From Endomicrobiia bacterium (GTDB lineage: Bacteria > Elusimicrobiota > Endomicrobiia > DTEH01), in the NCBI GenBank assembly GCA_039630545.1, contig JBCNUU010000003.1, forward strand, positions 99,250-163,249: a DNA stretch of 64,000 nt, read 5' to 3'. The notes below the pieces were generated by a model that was given only the letters and a program-made list of their open reading frames with translations, had not been told where the DNA came from and made no database searches. The position numbers and the translations under genes are program-made. Shown here piece after piece: positions 31,075 to 63,093 of the stretch; position 1 is the first letter of the stretch, and every line of letters starts with the position of its first letter.

Positions 31075-31167
31075 CGGAGGGGGCGGGATTCGAACCCGCG
31101 GTCCAGGTTTTAGCCCGGACAACTGCTTAGCAGGCAGCTGCCTTAAACCAATCTCGGCCACCCCTCC
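31075..31167 (-). tRNA. tRNA-Ser (anticodon GCU), long variable arm, no encoded CCA
   Basis: The reverse complement reads GGAGGGGTGGCCGAGATTGGTTTAAGGCAGCTGCCTGCTAAGCAGTTG...GCGGGTTCGAATCCCGCCCCCTCCG. It has a 7-bp acceptor stem, the CT-GCT-AA anticodon loop, a long extra arm and the TTCGAAT T-loop. Confidence 0.85.
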
Positions 31168-39703: not shown

Positions 39704-40843
39704 TTATTTTCTCCATACACCTGCGATTTTATAACCACAATATTTACATTTACCCTCCTTTATACTGTTTTCTAAAACTTCAAAATGTATTCTGTAAATT
39801 AGGATTTTATTGCAGTTAGGACAATAAGTAGAGTTATATTTATGTCCAGGAACATTACCAATATAGACATATTTGAGTCCAACCTCTTTTGCAATTTTAT
39901 AACAACTTTCTAAAGTCTTAACAGGTGTTGCTGGAAGATGTGTGGTTTTGTAGGTAGGAAAAAATCTTGTAAAATGTAAAGGAACATCGTCTGATAAATT
40001 TTCTTTTATCCATAAGCACATCTTTCTAACATCTTTTGGGTTATCATTTAGTGTAGGAATTACTAAATTTACAATCTCCAGCCATATATTTTTATGTTCT
40101 TTTATTATTTTTAATGAATTAAGAACAGGTTGTAGTTTTGCTAAAGATTGATTTTTATAAAACTCTTCAGTAAAACCTTTAAGATCCACCGTAACCGCGT
40201 CTGTAAATTTTAACATTTCTTTAAGTGCTGAAGGATTGATTGAGGCATTTGTATGCCATATGATTTTTATTTTTTCTTTTTTTGCTATCTTTGCTATTTC
40301 ATACATATATTCATAAAACGCAATTGGGTCATTATATGTAAAAGATATAGAGGGAATGTTGTATCTCTTTGCAAGTTTTACTGCTTCCTGAGGAGTTAGA
40401 AAATAATGTGTTATTTCTTCAAGTTGTTTCTGGGAGAGATGCCAGTTATGGCAATGTTTACATTTAAAGTTACAACCTGCTGTGCCAAAACAAAGAATTT
40501 CTGTTGATGGTAAAAAGTGATACACAGGTTCTTTCTCTATAGGGTCAACTGCTACAGCAGACGGTTTTGAATATACTATGTTGTACAGAGTACCGTTTTT
40601 ATTTTCTCTATTAAAACACATACCACGTTTGCCTGAAGGAATAATACATTCTCTAAAACATAAAAGACATTTAACAGAATTCTTGTTTGCTTTTTGATAA
40701 AACATGGCTTCTTTTTGAGGAATGATTAAAGTTGAGGTTGCTGCTTCGTGTTGAAAAAGTATATTTTTTAAAAAAATAACCATAAAGAGTATTATGAGTT
40801 TAAATCCTTTCAAGGTTTTATATTTTATATAATTCACCGACAA
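39704..40843 (-). CDS. AmmeMemoRadiSam-type radical SAM enzyme (PFL-activase-like) with N-terminal hydrophobic extension
   Basis: VKCLLCFRECIIPSGKRGMCFNRENKNGTLY N-terminal Cys cluster and CNFKCKHC (Cx3Cx2C) radical SAM motif. TTG start at 40843; alternative ATG at 40705. Confidence 0.6.
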   Translation of the reverse strand: MSVNYIKYKTLKGFKLIILFMVIFLKNILFQHEAATSTLIIPQKEAMFYQKANKNSVKCLLCFRECIIPSGKRGMCFNRENKNGTLYNIVYSKPSAVAVDPIEKEPVYHFLPSTEILCFGTAGCNFKCKHCHNWHLSQKQLEEITHYFLTPQEAVKLAKRYNIPSISFTYNDPIAFYEYMYEIAKIAKKEKIKIIWHTNASINPSALKEMLKFTDAVTVDLKGFTEEFYKNQSLAKLQPVLNSLKIIKEHKNIWLEIVNLVIPTLNDNPKDVRKMCLWIKENLSDDVPLHFTRFFPTYKTTHLPATPVKTLESCYKIAKEVGLKYVYIGNVPGHKYNSTYCPNCNKILIYRIHFEVLENSIKEGKCKYCGYKIAGVWRK

Positions 40844-41708
40844 TAAAAGTTTTTATTGTGTTATAGTGAAGTTCTACTGTGTCATTAATGTCAAATGCAT
40901 ATCCTCCACCTAAAGTGACAACTACTGGAGTGTCTTTAAAAAATTTTTTTACGAGCTCATCTCTTTTTTTTATTCCTTCTTTTGTAATTTTAAGTCCACC
41001 TAGTTGATCATTTTCATAAATATCAACTCCTGCCTGATAAAACACTACTTCAGCAGAAAAATTTTTTACTTTTTTAAGGCCTTCTTCTAGCAAAGATAAA
41101 TACTTTTCATCAGTAGTGCCTGCGTATACTTCAATATCAAGTGTGCTTTTCTCTTTTGGTTCAGGATAAATTTCTTTTTGATGGATTGAAAATGTGAACA
41201 CATCTTTATCGTCCTGAAAAATTTTTGCTGTACCGTTTCCTTGATGTACATCACAATCAACAACTGCTACTTTTTTGATTTTATAGGTTTTTTTAAGATA
41301 TTTTATAGCAACCGCGATATCGTTAAACACACAGAATCCTTCTCCATGTTCAGGATATGCATGGTGATAACCACCACCTATGTGGATGCCAACTTTCTGT
41401 TGTAGAGCAATTTCAGCTGCTAAAATAGTTCCAGCTACACTTATTAATGATGCCTCAACTATTTGAGGTGTTAATGGGATTTCTAATTTCAAAATTTCTT
41501 CGTAAGAAAGTTTGAGATTGAGAACTTTTTCTACATAACTTCTGGTATGGACCTCATAGAGATATTCTAAGACTACTTTTTGAGGCTCCACGAAGACTAA
41601 GCCTAAGAAAGTTTGTTCTAATTTTTGTTTTATTAAACGATATATTTTTGTAGAAAAAGGATGAACTCCTAAGTCTACCTCATATTTAGGAGAGTATACT
41701 ATTTTCAT
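40818..41708 (-). CDS. histone-deacetylase-superfamily amidohydrolase (AcuC / acetylpolyamine amidohydrolase-like)
   Basis: HIGGGYHHAYPEHGEGFCVFNDIAVA and VAVVDCDVHQGNGT are the metal-binding and catalytic motifs of the arginase/deacetylase fold. Confidence 0.75.
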   Translation of the reverse strand: MKIVYSPKYEVDLGVHPFSTKIYRLIKQKLEQTFLGLVFVEPQKVVLEYLYEVHTRSYVEKVLNLKLSYEEILKLEIPLTPQIVEASLISVAGTILAAEIALQQKVGIHIGGGYHHAYPEHGEGFCVFNDIAVAIKYLKKTYKIKKVAVVDCDVHQGNGTAKIFQDDKDVFTFSIHQKEIYPEPKEKSTLDIEVYAGTTDEKYLSLLEEGLKKVKNFSAEVVFYQAGVDIYENDQLGGLKITKEGIKKRDELVKKFFKDTPVVVTLGGGYAFDINDTVELHYNTIKTFIVGELYKI

Positions 41709-42804
41709 TATCTAAAAAATTTGATAGTTTTTTTAGAATATAAAATTTTTGTTTGTCATCTATTTTTGATTTTTCTACTAAACAGGTGAATAAACTCAAT
41801 GTTTCATCGTAATGTTTTTTGTCTATAGGATAAGGGTGTCCGTCTTTTCCACCAAAAGCAAATGAAAATCTTGCTGGATCCTGAGTGGAGACAGGATATC
41901 CATATATTACCTCAGATATTAAACCTAAAGCTCTCAAAGTTTTAGCTCCAACTCCTTCTACTGATATTAGATTTTTGAATGTGGTAATCTCTGTATCTTT
42001 AATTTTTGTAAATATTTTATAAAGTTTTTTGTAATCAAAATCTTCAGTTTTTATGTAATGCCTTTGAGGCAAAAATAAATCAGGTTGAGATTTTGAATTG
42101 ACGATTTTTTGCAATTCTTTTATGATGTTTTCGGGTTTTTGTAAAGTTGTATATTCAAGTATGCTGTTTTGGAGTGGTTCTGCATCTTTATTTACAAAAT
42201 TTAAAATTTTAGCTTCTTTTTTATCAGAAATAATTCCTGTGTGAGGAGAAATAATAAACTTTTCAGAGCCAGTTGTTGTGATTTTGTTAAACCAGTGGTA
42301 TCTTCTTGCGTATCCTGTGTTTGTGTTCATTCCCTGTTGAATCACACACCAGTTGCCATGTTTGTCTACAAAAATTGTATGATGATAAAGTTGATATCCA
42401 TCTTGAATACAACAGTTGTCTACCTTTGCTGTTAGTTTTGATAAAGCGATGAAAATTTCATTTTCAGATAAGTGTTTGCATTGCATGATTTCTTTTGGAG
42501 TATTTATTGCTGTTTTGCCTTTCCCCCCAAATATATATATACCATATTCAGGATAAGCTCTAAAAGCCTCTTTTATAGCAGCAGTTACTGTAGTTGTGAC
42601 ACCACTTGAATGCCAGTCAAATCCAGATATACATCCTAGAACTTGAAACCATACAGGATCAGAAAGTCGTTTGAGTAATTCTTGGCTACCATACTCTGTT
42701 ATTACTACCTTACAAATCTCAAATAAAAGTTTTTTTTGTCTTTCAAATAGCCATCTAGGAGCTTTTCCTGTGTGTAGGGGTAGATCAGCAGTTTTATATT
42801 TCAT
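41686..42804 (-). CDS. conserved hypothetical protein, DUF763-like (family assignment from memory), with C-terminal helix-hairpin-helix motif
   Basis: 372 aa. LHTGKAPRWLFERQ N-terminal conserved block. VEGVGAKTLRALGLISEVIYG is a canonical HhH (GIGxKTA) DNA-binding motif. Confidence 0.45.
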   Translation of the reverse strand: MKYKTADLPLHTGKAPRWLFERQKKLLFEICKVVITEYGSQELLKRLSDPVWFQVLGCISGFDWHSSGVTTTVTAAIKEAFRAYPEYGIYIFGGKGKTAINTPKEIMQCKHLSENEIFIALSKLTAKVDNCCIQDGYQLYHHTIFVDKHGNWCVIQQGMNTNTGYARRYHWFNKITTTGSEKFIISPHTGIISDKKEAKILNFVNKDAEPLQNSILEYTTLQKPENIIKELQKIVNSKSQPDLFLPQRHYIKTEDFDYKKLYKIFTKIKDTEITTFKNLISVEGVGAKTLRALGLISEVIYGYPVSTQDPARFSFAFGGKDGHPYPIDKKHYDETLSLFTCLVEKSKIDDKQKFYILKKLSNFLDNENSILS

Positions 42805-43762
42805 CTGTTAGAGTTGATATTTGTGGTAAAGTTTTTATTTTTAAATTACAGTCATCCCATATATAGTCAAATTCAAATGATAGAAATACTTTTTTAATAA
42901 ATTCTTTGCTTAAATTTTCTATAAAATTTATAAGGCTTCTGTAAATAGTTACTCTTATAGGTCTTGAATATCTAAATTTGCCGTCACTACACAAAATCAT
43001 TTCTGGAAAACACAGTTTGCTTTTTTTTTCTTTTAAAAATTTAAACTGTGTTTTTGTTAATCTTAATGTTGAAATAGATATAGAATGAAGATTTTTGGCT
43101 TCTATAGATGCTAATGCTTGAGCTATTATTTTTTTATATTCTTCAATAGTATTAAAAACTGACTCTACAAGAGTTTGATATGTTATGTCAAAGACTGGAT
43201 AAATAATAATGGGTTCTAATCTTAAACCTATAAGAAATCCAATTTTTTGAGCATACCATAAAGCTCTTATTCTTTCTTCTAAATTTAAAGTTTTATCTTC
43301 AAAGTTATTAATTATTATTTTTGGGGATAAGGTTACACCATATACGATTTTTATGTTATCATATAAAATTTCCTTGTTTTGCAATTCAAATATATTTGCA
43401 GTTTTTGTTCTTAATTCAACAAAACATTTTTTAGAATAAAACTTTGCTTTTTGAGAAATTATTAAACAGCATTTACTGAAAACTTCGATGTGTTTTTTAG
43501 TTAAAAAAGAGTCTGTAGTTTCTCCGAAGTTGAAATAGAAAACTTTCTTATTGGAATTTTTAAATAATTCTTCTGTTTCTGTTGCAAAATTTTCTATGTT
43601 CTCATAAATAACAGGTTTTGTTGAAATTTTTGAAAATTTCAAGTAACAGTACTCACAGTTAAAATTGCAGGTCTCCGCAAAAGATACAACAAACTCCTCT
43701 AAATCTATGACGTTTTTACCGTATAGATATTTTGAAATAAAACCTTTTTTTCTTAAATGCAT
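42794..43762 (-). CDS. radical SAM protein, spore-photoproduct-lyase-like (SplB / COG1533 'DNA repair photolyase' family)
   Basis: AETCNFNCEYCYL radical SAM cluster motif, in the arrangement seen in SPL-family enzymes. 322 aa. Confidence 0.6.
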   Translation of the reverse strand: MHLRKKGFISKYLYGKNVIDLEEFVVSFAETCNFNCEYCYLKFSKISTKPVIYENIENFATETEELFKNSNKKVFYFNFGETTDSFLTKKHIEVFSKCCLIISQKAKFYSKKCFVELRTKTANIFELQNKEILYDNIKIVYGVTLSPKIIINNFEDKTLNLEERIRALWYAQKIGFLIGLRLEPIIIYPVFDITYQTLVESVFNTIEEYKKIIAQALASIEAKNLHSISISTLRLTKTQFKFLKEKKSKLCFPEMILCSDGKFRYSRPIRVTIYRSLINFIENLSKEFIKKVFLSFEFDYIWDDCNLKIKTLPQISTLTDEI

Positions 43763-43765
43763 AAT

Positions 43766-44119
43766 TTATAAAGTTGTAAGAATATTCTTTATCGTTGAGA
43801 GATGTTTATGGATGTTTCTTTTTTGTGTTATAACATGTTTTAAGTTTACTTCTAAATCAAATATTTTAAATTTTTTAAGTTGATTCAGTTTTTTTGAAGT
43901 TATTGGATATCGCAGCTGATAAGTTTTTCTAAAAAATAACTCGCCATTTTTTATTCTATCTTTTGAAGATAAAATAGAAGTTTCAAAGTTATATTTGAAG
44001 ATTTTATCAACTTCTTTTTTGAAAATAGAAAGTATTTCGTAGGTTTCTTTAATAAAAATCTTCTGCGAATGAGTAAGATGAAGTTTTTCTGAGTTAAAGA
44101 TTTCTGATAGGATGTTCAT
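43766..44119 (-). CDS. small hypothetical protein (118 aa)
   Basis: Start set to an ATG overlapping the permease stop (ATGA). Lys-rich, no motif recognised. Confidence 0.35.
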   Translation of the reverse strand: MNILSEIFNSEKLHLTHSQKIFIKETYEILSIFKKEVDKIFKYNFETSILSSKDRIKNGELFFRKTYQLRYPITSKKLNQLKKFKIFDLEVNLKHVITQKRNIHKHLSTIKNILTTL

Positions 44120-45492
44120 CTTAAAAATATGATTGAAAATATGAAAGAGATAACCATTGTTAAAATTCCTACAGGAAAACCTATCTTTAGCCATTGAAAG
44201 AAGTTAATTTTAATATTGTAGTTTTTTTCAAGAAGGCCTAAGGCAATAATATTTGCGGTAGAACCTATCATGGTGATATTTCCTCCGAAACAACCACCCC
44301 AGAGTATAATCCACCAGAAAGAGGAATTGTTAATGATTAATTTTTTAAGGCTGTTTACTATTGGGATATAAGAAGCTACAACAACTACATTGTCTAAAAC
44401 ACTGGATAGCAATCCTGAAGAGAAAAGTAACCAAAAAGAAAGAAAATTTTTGTTATTACTTATGCTTAAAATTTTCTGTGCGATTTTTTCTGCTATGCCA
44501 GAAGATTGTATAACTCCTGCCTGTGCAAAAAGGAATAAGAAAAATAACAGAGAATTCCATTCAACTTCTTTTTCAATATATTTTTTTGATTGTTCTTTAT
44601 TTATTATTAAAACCAGACCAGCCACTATTATAGGTAGTATAATTAGAATTGTGTTTTCCTCTAAGTTTAAAAACACTTCGATTCTTCTGTGAAAAGCAAT
44701 TAAAATAACAGTAATTAAAAAAATGATACTACTTATTCTGGCTTTTTTATTCATCGGTGTAGATATAAGACACATAAAAAATGTGTTTTCCAGATGAGGT
44801 TTAAGTTTTTCAGAAATTTCCTTTATATATTTTCTGTAAAACCAGGATAATATAACTACAGTTGTAACTAAACAGATAAGTGTGACGGGCATAGAGTTAA
44901 ATATAAAATCTTCAAAAGAAAGTTTTCCTCTTAATGCTATAAGCACTCCAATTGGATTTCCTAAAACAGTAGTGGCAGATCCTATATTTGTTGTAATTAT
45001 GCAGGATAAAAGAAGTGGAATTGGTGAAACTTCAAGAAAATTACATAAAGAAAAAATTATTGTTGAAACAAACATAATAGAGGTGACTTCATCCATTAAA
45101 CCAGAAAGAACATAAGATATAACTAATAACGAAACAAATACTTTTATTCCGTTTAGATTTTTTAGGCATAGTATTTTTGTAGTTATATAATAAAAAACGC
45201 CAGCTTCTTTCAACATTGCTAAAATAATCATCATACCAACTAAAAACCAGATTACATCAAGTGAAGCGTACTTTACAAAATGTTCTAAATCAGTCATGTG
45301 AAGAATAAGCATTATCCCACTTCCTATAAATACAAATCCTACTCTAAATTCCCAAAAAAACAATGTCCCTAAAATTGATAAAGAAAAAATGCTTAAAATT
45401 AAAGATTGCTGTAAAGAAAAGCTGAATAGATTATAGGAAAGAAAACCTACTAGTATAGATAAAAAAATCAAAAATAATATTTTTTCTTTCAT
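44116..45492 (-). CDS. anion permease of the ArsB/NhaD (ion-transporter superfamily) type
   Basis: About 12 TM helices with the duplicated-halves architecture of ArsB/NhaD/CitMHS permeases. Start set to MKEKILF at 45492, which is preceded by TATATAAT roughly 10 nt upstream (possible leaderless mRNA). Confidence 0.6.
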   Translation of the reverse strand: MKEKILFLIFLSILVGFLSYNLFSFSLQQSLILSIFSLSILGTLFFWEFRVGFVFIGSGIMLILHMTDLEHFVKYASLDVIWFLVGMMIILAMLKEAGVFYYITTKILCLKNLNGIKVFVSLLVISYVLSGLMDEVTSIMFVSTIIFSLCNFLEVSPIPLLLSCIITTNIGSATTVLGNPIGVLIALRGKLSFEDFIFNSMPVTLICLVTTVVILSWFYRKYIKEISEKLKPHLENTFFMCLISTPMNKKARISSIIFLITVILIAFHRRIEVFLNLEENTILIILPIIVAGLVLIINKEQSKKYIEKEVEWNSLLFFLFLFAQAGVIQSSGIAEKIAQKILSISNNKNFLSFWLLFSSGLLSSVLDNVVVVASYIPIVNSLKKLIINNSSFWWIILWGGCFGGNITMIGSTANIIALGLLEKNYNIKINFFQWLKIGFPVGILTMVISFIFSIIFLR

Positions 45493-45546
45493 TAAAGATT
45501 GAATTATATAAAAATTTATAATAAAATTCAACAAAATTTAAAAGTT

Positions 45547-45969
45547 ATGAATAAAACGAAGAAGATTTTAGCGTGGTTTTATGTTGTAAACTGGTGCGGA
45601 ATTATTTTTTTTCTTTCAAGTATTCCTGAATTGAAAATAGAAGAGCTTGGATTGTGGGATTTAATTTTAAGAAAAATAGCACATCTTATAGAATATTTAA
45701 TCTTATCAGTTTTGGTTTCCAATGCTCTGTTTGTCTCTTTTAATATGAAGTTTTTAAATTCGTGTCTTTTTAGTTTTGTTTTCAGTGTGATATATGCTAT
45801 ATCAGATGAAATACACCAATACTTTGTGCCTGGAAGACATTTTTCTTTATTGGATGTGTTTATAGACACAATGGGAATTATTTTTGGTATAATTTTATGG
45901 ATAAAGTTTTTAAGATATAGAATATATAAAAATCATATAAATCTTGAAAATAAAAATTTAGTTTTGTAA
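45547..45969 (+). CDS. VanZ-family membrane protein
   Basis: WCGIIFFLSSIP...LRKIAHLIEYLILS...ISDEIHQYFVPGR is the VanZ-like pattern. Confidence 0.6.
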   Translation: MNKTKKILAWFYVVNWCGIIFFLSSIPELKIEELGLWDLILRKIAHLIEYLILSVLVSNALFVSFNMKFLNSCLFSFVFSVIYAISDEIHQYFVPGRHFSLLDVFIDTMGIIFGIILWIKFLRYRIYKNHINLENKNLVL

Positions 45970-45995: not shown

Positions 45996-46068
45996 TCCGC
46001 GGTAGCTCAATCGGTGGAGCGTCCGGCTGTTAACCGGATGGTTGCTGGTTCGAGTCCAGCCCGCGGAG
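45996..46068 (+). tRNA. tRNA-Asn (anticodon GUU), no encoded CCA
   Basis: TCCGCGGTAGCTCAATCGGTGGAGCGTCCGGCTGTTAACCGGATGGTTGCTGGTTCGAGTCCAGCCCGCGGAG. The anticodon loop is CT-GTT-AA and the T-loop is GGTTCGAGTCC. Confidence 0.9.
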
Positions 46069-63019: not shown

Positions 63020-63093
63020 GGGTGCGTAGCTCAGTTGGTTAGAGTGCCGCTTTGACATGGCGGAGGTCACAGGTTCAAGTCCTGTCGCACCCA
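63020..63093 (+). tRNA. tRNA-Val (anticodon GAC), no encoded CCA
   Basis: GGGTGCGTAGCTCAGTTGGTTAGAGTGCCGCTTTGACATGGCGGAGGTCACAGGTTCAAGTCCTGTCGCACCCA. The anticodon loop is TT-GAC-AT. Confidence 0.9.

Follow-up and report, generated by a model that had tools for sequence, protein, structure and literature searches.

What does a homologue of spore photoproduct lyase (SPL) do in a bacterium that forms no spores, and does it depend on the gene that it overlaps? The question is raised by a stretch of 64,000 nucleotides (nt) of an Endomicrobiia bacterium (GenBank assembly GCA_039630545.1, contig JBCNUU010000003.1, positions 99,250 to 163,249 of the forward strand), which was analysed as a whole and is called here the window; its GC content is ∼29%. 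A radical S-adenosylmethionine (SAM) protein of the SPL family, 322 aa long (42794-43762, minus strand; an open reading frame, ORF, with a Pfam SPL match), is followed there by a protein of 372 aa (41686-42804, minus strand; an ORF matching PF05559), the two ORFs sharing 11 nt. Both proteins are identical (100%) to ones encoded in an Endomicrobiia metagenome-assembled genome. An initial annotation described both ORFs and their overlap correctly and proposed that the pair acts on DNA, the 372-aa protein binding a lesion or flipped-out base through its helix-hairpin-helix (HhH) and the radical SAM protein serving as the lyase. We arrive at a different reading, to which we give a probability of about one half: the two genes would belong to two separate, probably DNA-directed modules that became neighbours by thematic clustering, not by mechanistic dependence. 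The first module would be a two-gene unit made of a 117-aa 'RYP' protein and the short-form SPL-family radical SAM protein; the second would be the 372-aa protein, a DUF763 member, autonomous, very widespread, apparently of a new fold and carrying one HhH.

Co-occurrence of the two genes was examined from both sides. On the DUF763 side we considered 80 loci from many phyla, with up to 10 kb on each side of the gene, using tblastn and a clade hidden Markov model. A gene of the SPL family was found within 10 kb in a single locus, L039, while the other 79 of the 80 had none; also, the immediate neighbours of DUF763 were heterogeneous across the loci. DUF763 relatives with no radical SAM gene include L132 (66% identity), with chorismate synthase upstream and a deacetylase-family gene downstream, and L134 from Ratteibacteria (56% identity); in Sinorhizobium meliloti and Rhizobium the megaplasmid copies of DUF763 are stand-alone genes, again with no radical SAM gene. 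Radical SAM genes seen a few kb from DUF763 in some loci were considered and set aside as unrelated generic members, not of the SPL family.

On the radical SAM side, the short form was present in 11 distinct loci, and DUF763 was located within one gene of it in five, all with Endomicrobiia-type (low-GC) sequence. DUF763 comes directly after the radical SAM gene in the window, L081 and L136; it stands one gene beyond in L133, where an extra radical SAM gene is inserted, and in L135, where the inserted gene is an antisense nucleotidyltransferase. The insert in L133 (4072-5004) codes for a generic radical SAM protein of 310 aa and overlaps the start of DUF763. The remaining six loci (two WOR-3-type, three Elusimicrobia-type and L137) were without DUF763; a 335-aa protein encoded downstream of the radical SAM gene in WOR-3-type loci was tried as a divergent DUF763 and rejected (hhalign, 1.6%). 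Among the 51 SPL-family loci first collected, DUF763 occurred in one (L081); a metagenome scan for the radical SAM clade gave mainly distant relatives among the matches listed, and these served as a negative control for linkage to DUF763. Strict linkage of the two genes thus failed; still, co-occurrence was not absent, as adjacency recurred in the Endomicrobiia-type loci and in the unrelated locus L039. Because of this recurrence a looser link, at the level of a pathway, is possible, and we return to it below.

The gene that does accompany the short-form radical SAM gene lies on its other side. It encodes a small helical protein of 117 aa with LT.SQK.FIKET and LRYP motifs (43766-44119, minus strand; an ORF annotated by NCBI with the same length). 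Its ATG shares 4 nt (ATGA) with the end of the preceding CitMHS gene at the stop codon of the latter, and 3 nt separate its own end from the start of the radical SAM gene. Homologues of roughly 100-180 aa are encoded directly upstream of the short-form radical SAM gene in 10 of the 11 loci, the exception being L137; the ten include the loci of WOR-3 and Elusimicrobia type, near which DUF763 is absent. The small ORF overlaps the radical SAM ORF or lies at most ∼60 nt from it, except in L135 (∼400 nt). The family is tiny, with 15 representative clusters in 1.84e9 proteins, and the window member had no match in Pfam or NCBIfam and no Foldseek match against PDB at E<=0.001. Its AlphaFold2 (AF2) model is all-helical, with a predicted local distance difference test score (pLDDT) of 75.6 and the first 75 residues modelled confidently. 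A gene fission in which the small protein would be the detached N-terminal domain of SPL was considered and rejected, the hhalign probability against long-form SPL-family proteins being 0.1%.

A hint to the nature of the small protein came from its 'RYP' motif region, IKNGELFFRKTYQLRYPITSKKLNQ (43880-43954, minus strand), in which R70, Y71 and P72 are invariant. ParB-like proteins of ∼340 aa have a C-terminal part that is matched by the invariant K-G..FF...LRYP.LS region (E=3e-6 by hmmsearch against a small database; probability 74-76% by hhalign, E∼2.5e-5). In L090, L102 and L039 the gene for such a ParB-like protein stands immediately upstream of a long-form SPL-like gene, and in L096, L100 and L097 it lies 2.5 kb downstream. 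The long-form radical SAM proteins (L039, L090, L096, L100, L102) are homologous to the window enzyme at 26-30% identity; as in the window's pair, the long-form partner gene is upstream, overlapping or abutting, and the ParB-like C-terminal region has the motif K-G...(L/I)RYP.L in common with the small protein. The window version is shorter in both components: the small protein lacks the ParB N-terminal and helix-turn-helix domains (117 aa versus ∼340 aa), and the radical SAM protein lacks the N-terminal domain of the long-form enzymes.

In several long-form loci DNA-repair or SOS genes are present as well. The SPL-like and ParB-like genes stand among LexA, PolB and a DNA methylase (N6/N4) in L090 (1377-8186), among endonuclease III, a B12-radical SAM gene and a GT4 glycosyltransferase in L100 (4588-10034), and among UvrA and LigA in L102 (34-10155). 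The pairing of ParB-like with SPL-like genes looks like an undescribed module; a literature search for SPL together with ParB found nothing. These observations suggest that the SPL-like family forms two-component DNA-directed systems, of which the window would carry a reduced form. We also saw that genes of the PNP_UDP_1 nucleoside phosphorylase family abut SPL-like radical SAM genes in L090 (3439-4179) and L109 (335-1366), and that L119 (374-2638) has SPL-family radical SAM genes in tandem, coding for 377 and 373 aa.

How close is the 322-aa protein to SPL itself? The family assignment made in the initial annotation holds: the protein scored 44.7 bits against the Pfam SPL profile PF20903 (cut-off 27; E=1.1e-11), and the only solved proteins that it matched were SPL chains, with E=1e-4 for the single sequence and 5.6e-14 for the clade profile (residues 23-186). 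Against the SPL equivalog TIGR04070 it reached 54 bits, far below the cut-off of 400. The short-form clade is small, with 64 matches; these come from Endomicrobia, WOR-3 and Elusimicrobia, ∼38 having an identity of >=33%. The hosts, Endomicrobiia, WOR-3 and Elusimicrobia, are non-sporulating.

For comparison of individual features we used the SPL of Geobacillus thermodenitrificans (PDB 4FHC/4FHD; PMC3467042). The [4Fe-4S]/SAM motif CNFNCEYCY (43643-43669, minus strand; C32, C36 and C39, with Y38 and Y40), invariant in both clade alignments, aligns to CMGHCHYCY of that enzyme; CX3CX2C is common to both, as is the C-x-Y-C-Y signature, Y38 and Y40 corresponding to Tyr96 and Tyr98 of SPL. The segment YFNFGETTDSF (43505-43537, minus strand), placed by alignment to the Cys140 mutants 4fhg/4fhe, has Glu81 (in G-E-T-T-D) where SPL has Cys140; neither G80 nor E81 varies across the clade. 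This segment resembles the general 'GGE' SAM-binding motif of radical SAM enzymes. In SPL, Cys140 is the hydrogen donor (PMC3467042). No equivalent of the Clostridium-type Cys77 was found either: residues 1-31 of the window protein contain no Cys, and the clade has no other invariant Cys. The alpha/beta domain that SPL has at its N-terminus, a four-stranded sheet with three helices (PMC3467042) and ∼80 residues long, is missing as well, since in the window protein 31 residues precede the first Cys of the cluster motif and the alignment of the protein begins at position 78 of the SPL profile.

Other differences from SPL are an extra insertion of ∼14 residues and the separately encoded small partner. 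In the region of the beta-hairpin with which SPL flips its lesion there is a basic and aromatic segment, CFPEMILCSDGKFRYSRPIRV (42950-43012, minus strand), rich in invariant Lys, Arg and Tyr (DGKFRYSRPIR), in which D260, K262, R264, Y265, R267 and R270 are invariant. The hairpin-tip residues Arg304 and Tyr305 of SPL fall, by an alignment whose mapping is uncertain here, on S259 and D260 and are not conserved. Because the hydrogen-donor Cys and the N-terminal domain are missing, the radical SAM protein would be unable to complete the canonical SPL reaction as SPL does; judged by its sequence, it is an SPL-like enzyme, not SPL. We expect that it would cleave SAM to a 5'-deoxyadenosyl radical, and that a hydrogen atom would then be abstracted from a substrate carried on a polymer, most probably in DNA; the small protein would act as the recognition or adaptor subunit, a cut-down ParB-like partner.

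The 372-aa protein had been credited with only two recognisable features, an N-terminal block and an HhH. It is a full-length member of DUF763/PF05559 (COG1415), with 401.8 bits against a cut-off of 35.5 (E=2.8e-120) over positions 2-319 of the 319 in the profile, and ∼60 positions are invariant in an alignment of 33 DUF763 sequences. The invariant blocks are the N-terminal block, DWHSSG.TTT, GGK, QDGY..HH, QQGMN, ARRYHW, PH, the HhH and DPARFSFA.GGKDG.PYP. The N-terminal block LHTGKAPRWLF lies, as annotated, at 42745-42777 (minus strand), with P9, L10, H11, G13, P16, L19 and F20 invariant. The window protein is a typical member that has every family-invariant residue and is distinctive by its neighbourhood only; it belongs to an Endomicrobiia/Omnitrophota/Ratteibacteria branch characterized by FAFGG (FAHGG elsewhere) and by a short insertion near residue 175.

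The family is large, with at least 8000 clusters at 90% identity and at least 595 matches in a one-genome-per-species collection, where some twenty bacterial phyla and candidate groups appear among the matches listed; it is also present on rhizobial megaplasmids and in two Haladaptatus plasmid records. A domain survey of 2005 lists DUF763 in many archaea and notes that xanthomonads carry it (PMC554113); this list was all that we found in the literature under DUF763, PF05559, COG1415 or IPR008482. Searches of PDB by sequence, by profile and by Foldseek (E<=0.001) returned no relative. The AF2 model has a pLDDT of 79 as a whole, and below 50 for residues 1-13; going by this model, the fold is apparently new and of mixed alpha/beta type. 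With ∼60 invariant, largely polar residues, the protein looks, from its sequence, like an enzyme and not like a simple binder.

The HhH of DUF763, FKNLISVEGVGAKTLRALGLISEVIY (41902-41979, minus strand; F276, G286, L293, L295 and E298 invariant), contains the peptide VEGVGAKTLRALGL quoted earlier, at 41920-41961 of the minus strand. In the AF2 model the helices 276-280 and 287-301 were placed around E-G-V-G with pLDDT about 90 (86-97), so that the HhH did appear at fold level in structure prediction. The Pfam profiles PF00633 and PF14520 (HHH, HHH_5) hit the right place below threshold, with E=0.22 and 0.15 and 12-13 bits where the cut-offs are 24-27; scores as low as these are common for short single motifs. 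An hhalign comparison with endonuclease III, taken from one fetched locus, aligned 24 columns that are exactly the annotated HhH (E=5.7e-4, 29% probability); with Ogg, hhalign aligned nothing. At the level of motif and model, we conclude, the HhH is real. DUF763 has in common with endonuclease III and Ogg a single HhH of the form hxxhxGhGxKT and, ∼20 residues on, a Gly/Pro stretch with an invariant Asp (D309); unlike in HhH-GPD glycosylases, the remainder is a mixed alpha/beta fold that has no match. Membership among the HhH-GPD glycosylases was considered and rejected: there was no PF00730 match, the hhalign match was confined to the 24 HhH columns, and Foldseek against PDB gave no glycosylase.

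Away from the Endomicrobiia, DUF763 has other neighbours. PolX is directly downstream, with ORFs overlapping or abutting, in two Actinomycetota loci (L019 and L030) and nearby in a third, and a second PolX paralogue is upstream of DUF763 in three loci. Two different PolX paralogues are seen to flank DUF763 in the Actinomycetota loci L019 (5103-12806), L030 (3581-9010) and L046 (4906-6849), where a protein-isoaspartate methyltransferase gene precedes. LigA is at position +1 in L001 (Omnitrophota, 58% identity) and in L134 (Ratteibacteria); two other phyla have it at most five genes away (L004, L073). For a single-copy gene, the presence of LigA within ∼5 genes in 3 of the 80 DUF763 loci corresponds to a rough binomial p of 0.001-0.017. 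A protein of 450 aa from the PD-(D/E)XK family is encoded at +1 in five Dehalococcoidia loci. A separate observation is a UdgX-family uracil-DNA-binding gene on pSymA of S. meliloti (L138, 10096-10737), 3 kb from the stand-alone DUF763. That DUF763 may act on DNA is suggested mainly by neighbours that span three different repair functions, though each association is lineage-limited. In view of how many His, Asp, Lys and Arg residues are invariant in it, and of its repeated same-strand coupling to PolX, LigA and a PD-(D/E)XK nuclease, DUF763 would be a DNA-repair or DNA-end-processing factor.

In the window both genes are part of a six-gene run on the minus strand: CitMHS transporter (44116-45534), small ORF, radical SAM, DUF763, a histone-deacetylase-family gene of 296 aa downstream of DUF763 (40818-41708; PF00850, 6.5e-63) and an AmmeMemoRadiSam-type radical SAM gene (39704-40843; TIGR04337, 360 bits). 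Along the run the junctions, with mechanically called ORF starts, measure -4, +3, -11, -23 and -26 nt, the last resting on a putative TTG start of the AmmeMemoRadiSam ORF. As every junction overlaps or abuts, the 11-nt overlap alone says little. The deacetylase-family gene also follows DUF763 in L132, L133 and L135, and 3 kb off in L081; the order of the AmmeMemoRadiSam gene directly after the deacetylase-family gene is the same in L135. Within the part of the window examined here, 38-48 kb, neither an AMMECR1 nor a Memo gene was identified.

Divergent from the CitMHS gene is a small membrane-protein ORF (45499-45969, plus strand) in the slot that VanZ-family genes take in L133, L135 and L137; in L133 and L135 the order VanZ, CitMHS precedes the module of small ORF and radical SAM gene. 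The window has three tRNA genes, at 31075-31167 (minus), 45996-46068 (plus) and 63020-63093 (plus), the second just past the small membrane-protein ORF. A scan for promoters and terminators was uninformative, with fewer sites than in shuffled sequence. Searches of the PADLOC defence and PHROGs phage families gave no specific match for DUF763 or the small protein, and for the radical SAM protein only a generic cluster-motif match to viperin; with no fold match in BFVD in addition, a defence or phage origin was rejected. The IVYWREL amino-acid composition, by a formula reportedly due to Zeldovich in 2007, gives a crude estimate of roughly 61 C, and a thermophilic host is plausible.

A DNA-directed role is plausible for both genes, and to this extent the proposal that the pair acts on DNA stands; its other part, DUF763 as the lesion binder of the radical SAM protein, is unsupported. 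If the two modules are separate, their adjacency in the Endomicrobiia-type loci and in one other lineage would reflect a grouping of DNA-maintenance genes into compact operons. Several observations weigh against this reading. In the window, L081 and L136 the radical SAM gene and DUF763 overlap at their stop and start codons, and L136 preserves small protein, radical SAM gene and DUF763 as a trio, with an overlap of 4 nt, though both of its flanks differ from those of the window. In L039, with 55% GC and from a distinct lineage, genes for a ParB-like protein, a long-form SPL-like protein, an enoyl-CoA hydratase and DUF763 form a tight cluster on the same strand. That a rare module came to lie beside DUF763 twice independently is more than we would expect by chance and hints at a functional link. 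Our counts describe locus neighbourhoods, and every genome with the radical SAM gene may also have DUF763, at another place. The repair role proposed for DUF763 is drawn from its gene neighbourhoods, several of which come from single lineages, and the link between the small protein and the ParB-like proteins is only 74-76% probable by hhalign.

These points would fit a facultative three-gene pathway, in which the small partner, the radical SAM protein and DUF763 work on the same DNA lesion in the Endomicrobiia-type loci and L039 and have other partners elsewhere; the radical SAM protein and its partner would do the radical step, and DUF763 would recognise the site or process the product. Besides the overlapping codons, the trio conserved in L136 and the independent recurrence in L039, such a pathway gains from a gene order that survives one inserted gene in L133 and L135 and from the repair enzymes that DUF763 adjoins elsewhere. 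The same insertions can be counted on the other side, as the pair is interrupted in L135 by the antisense gene and in L133 by the additional radical SAM gene. Also, in L132 and L137, which are Endomicrobiia-like and from the same sample, the two genes are on different contigs with other neighbours, and the WOR-3-type and Elusimicrobia-type radical SAM modules do without DUF763 nearby. On balance we regard the facultative pathway as rather unlikely. One could speculate further that DUF763 is the founder of a new-fold HhH class of DNA-repair enzymes, that SPL-like proteins with ParB-type or RYP partners are a second radical-based system of DNA repair or modification, and that both act from one operon on the same lesion in the Endomicrobiia-type loci and L039; we think it unlikely that all of this holds together.

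The tight and near-universal coupling of the small ORF to the radical SAM gene could be read in another way, with the radical SAM protein modifying a protein or peptide, namely the small upstream protein (e.g. at its invariant Arg-Tyr-Pro); the system would then have no role on DNA, and its adjacency to DUF763 would be due to chance. In favour are the many radical SAM enzymes that act on a protein encoded next to them, the invariance of the RYP motif and a small protein that has no fold or family match. Yet the nearest characterised relative of the enzyme is the DNA repair enzyme SPL, and no SPASM or other peptide-recognition domain was detected in it by family profile searches. Besides, the RYP region is common to the C-termini of ParB-like proteins, which are of DNA-binding type, relatives of the enzyme adjoin LexA, PolB, endonuclease III, UvrA and LigA, and the RYP motif is inside a confidently modelled helical bundle rather than in a free tail. 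We consider such protein modification improbable. A lesion lyase made of two obligate components, in which DUF763 would bind the lesion or flipped-out base through its HhH and the radical SAM protein would be the catalytic lyase, would agree with the 11-nt overlap in the window, with the HhH and with the base flipping by which SPL itself acts on DNA (PMC3467042), but it is very improbable and already largely refuted by the phylogenetic profile, as strict co-occurrence fails in both directions, DUF763 is far more widespread (>100-fold) than the radical SAM clade, the latter has the small protein as its constant neighbour (10 of 11 loci), and the invariant, largely polar residues of DUF763 look enzyme-like.

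On the reading that we favour, of two separate modules, the focus shifts from DUF763 to the partner that travels with SPL-like enzymes, the RYP protein here and the ParB-like protein in the long-form loci. Both leads come from gene neighbourhoods so far, and nothing in the locus belongs to a described system beyond the level of family. SPL is, to our knowledge, one of very few radical SAM enzymes that act on DNA; the RYP protein and the short-form radical SAM protein make a defined two-protein unit that bears on the role of SPL homologues in non-sporulating bacteria. For DUF763, a large orphan family, a concrete and testable hypothesis follows from the repeated coupling to PolX, LigA and a nuclease.

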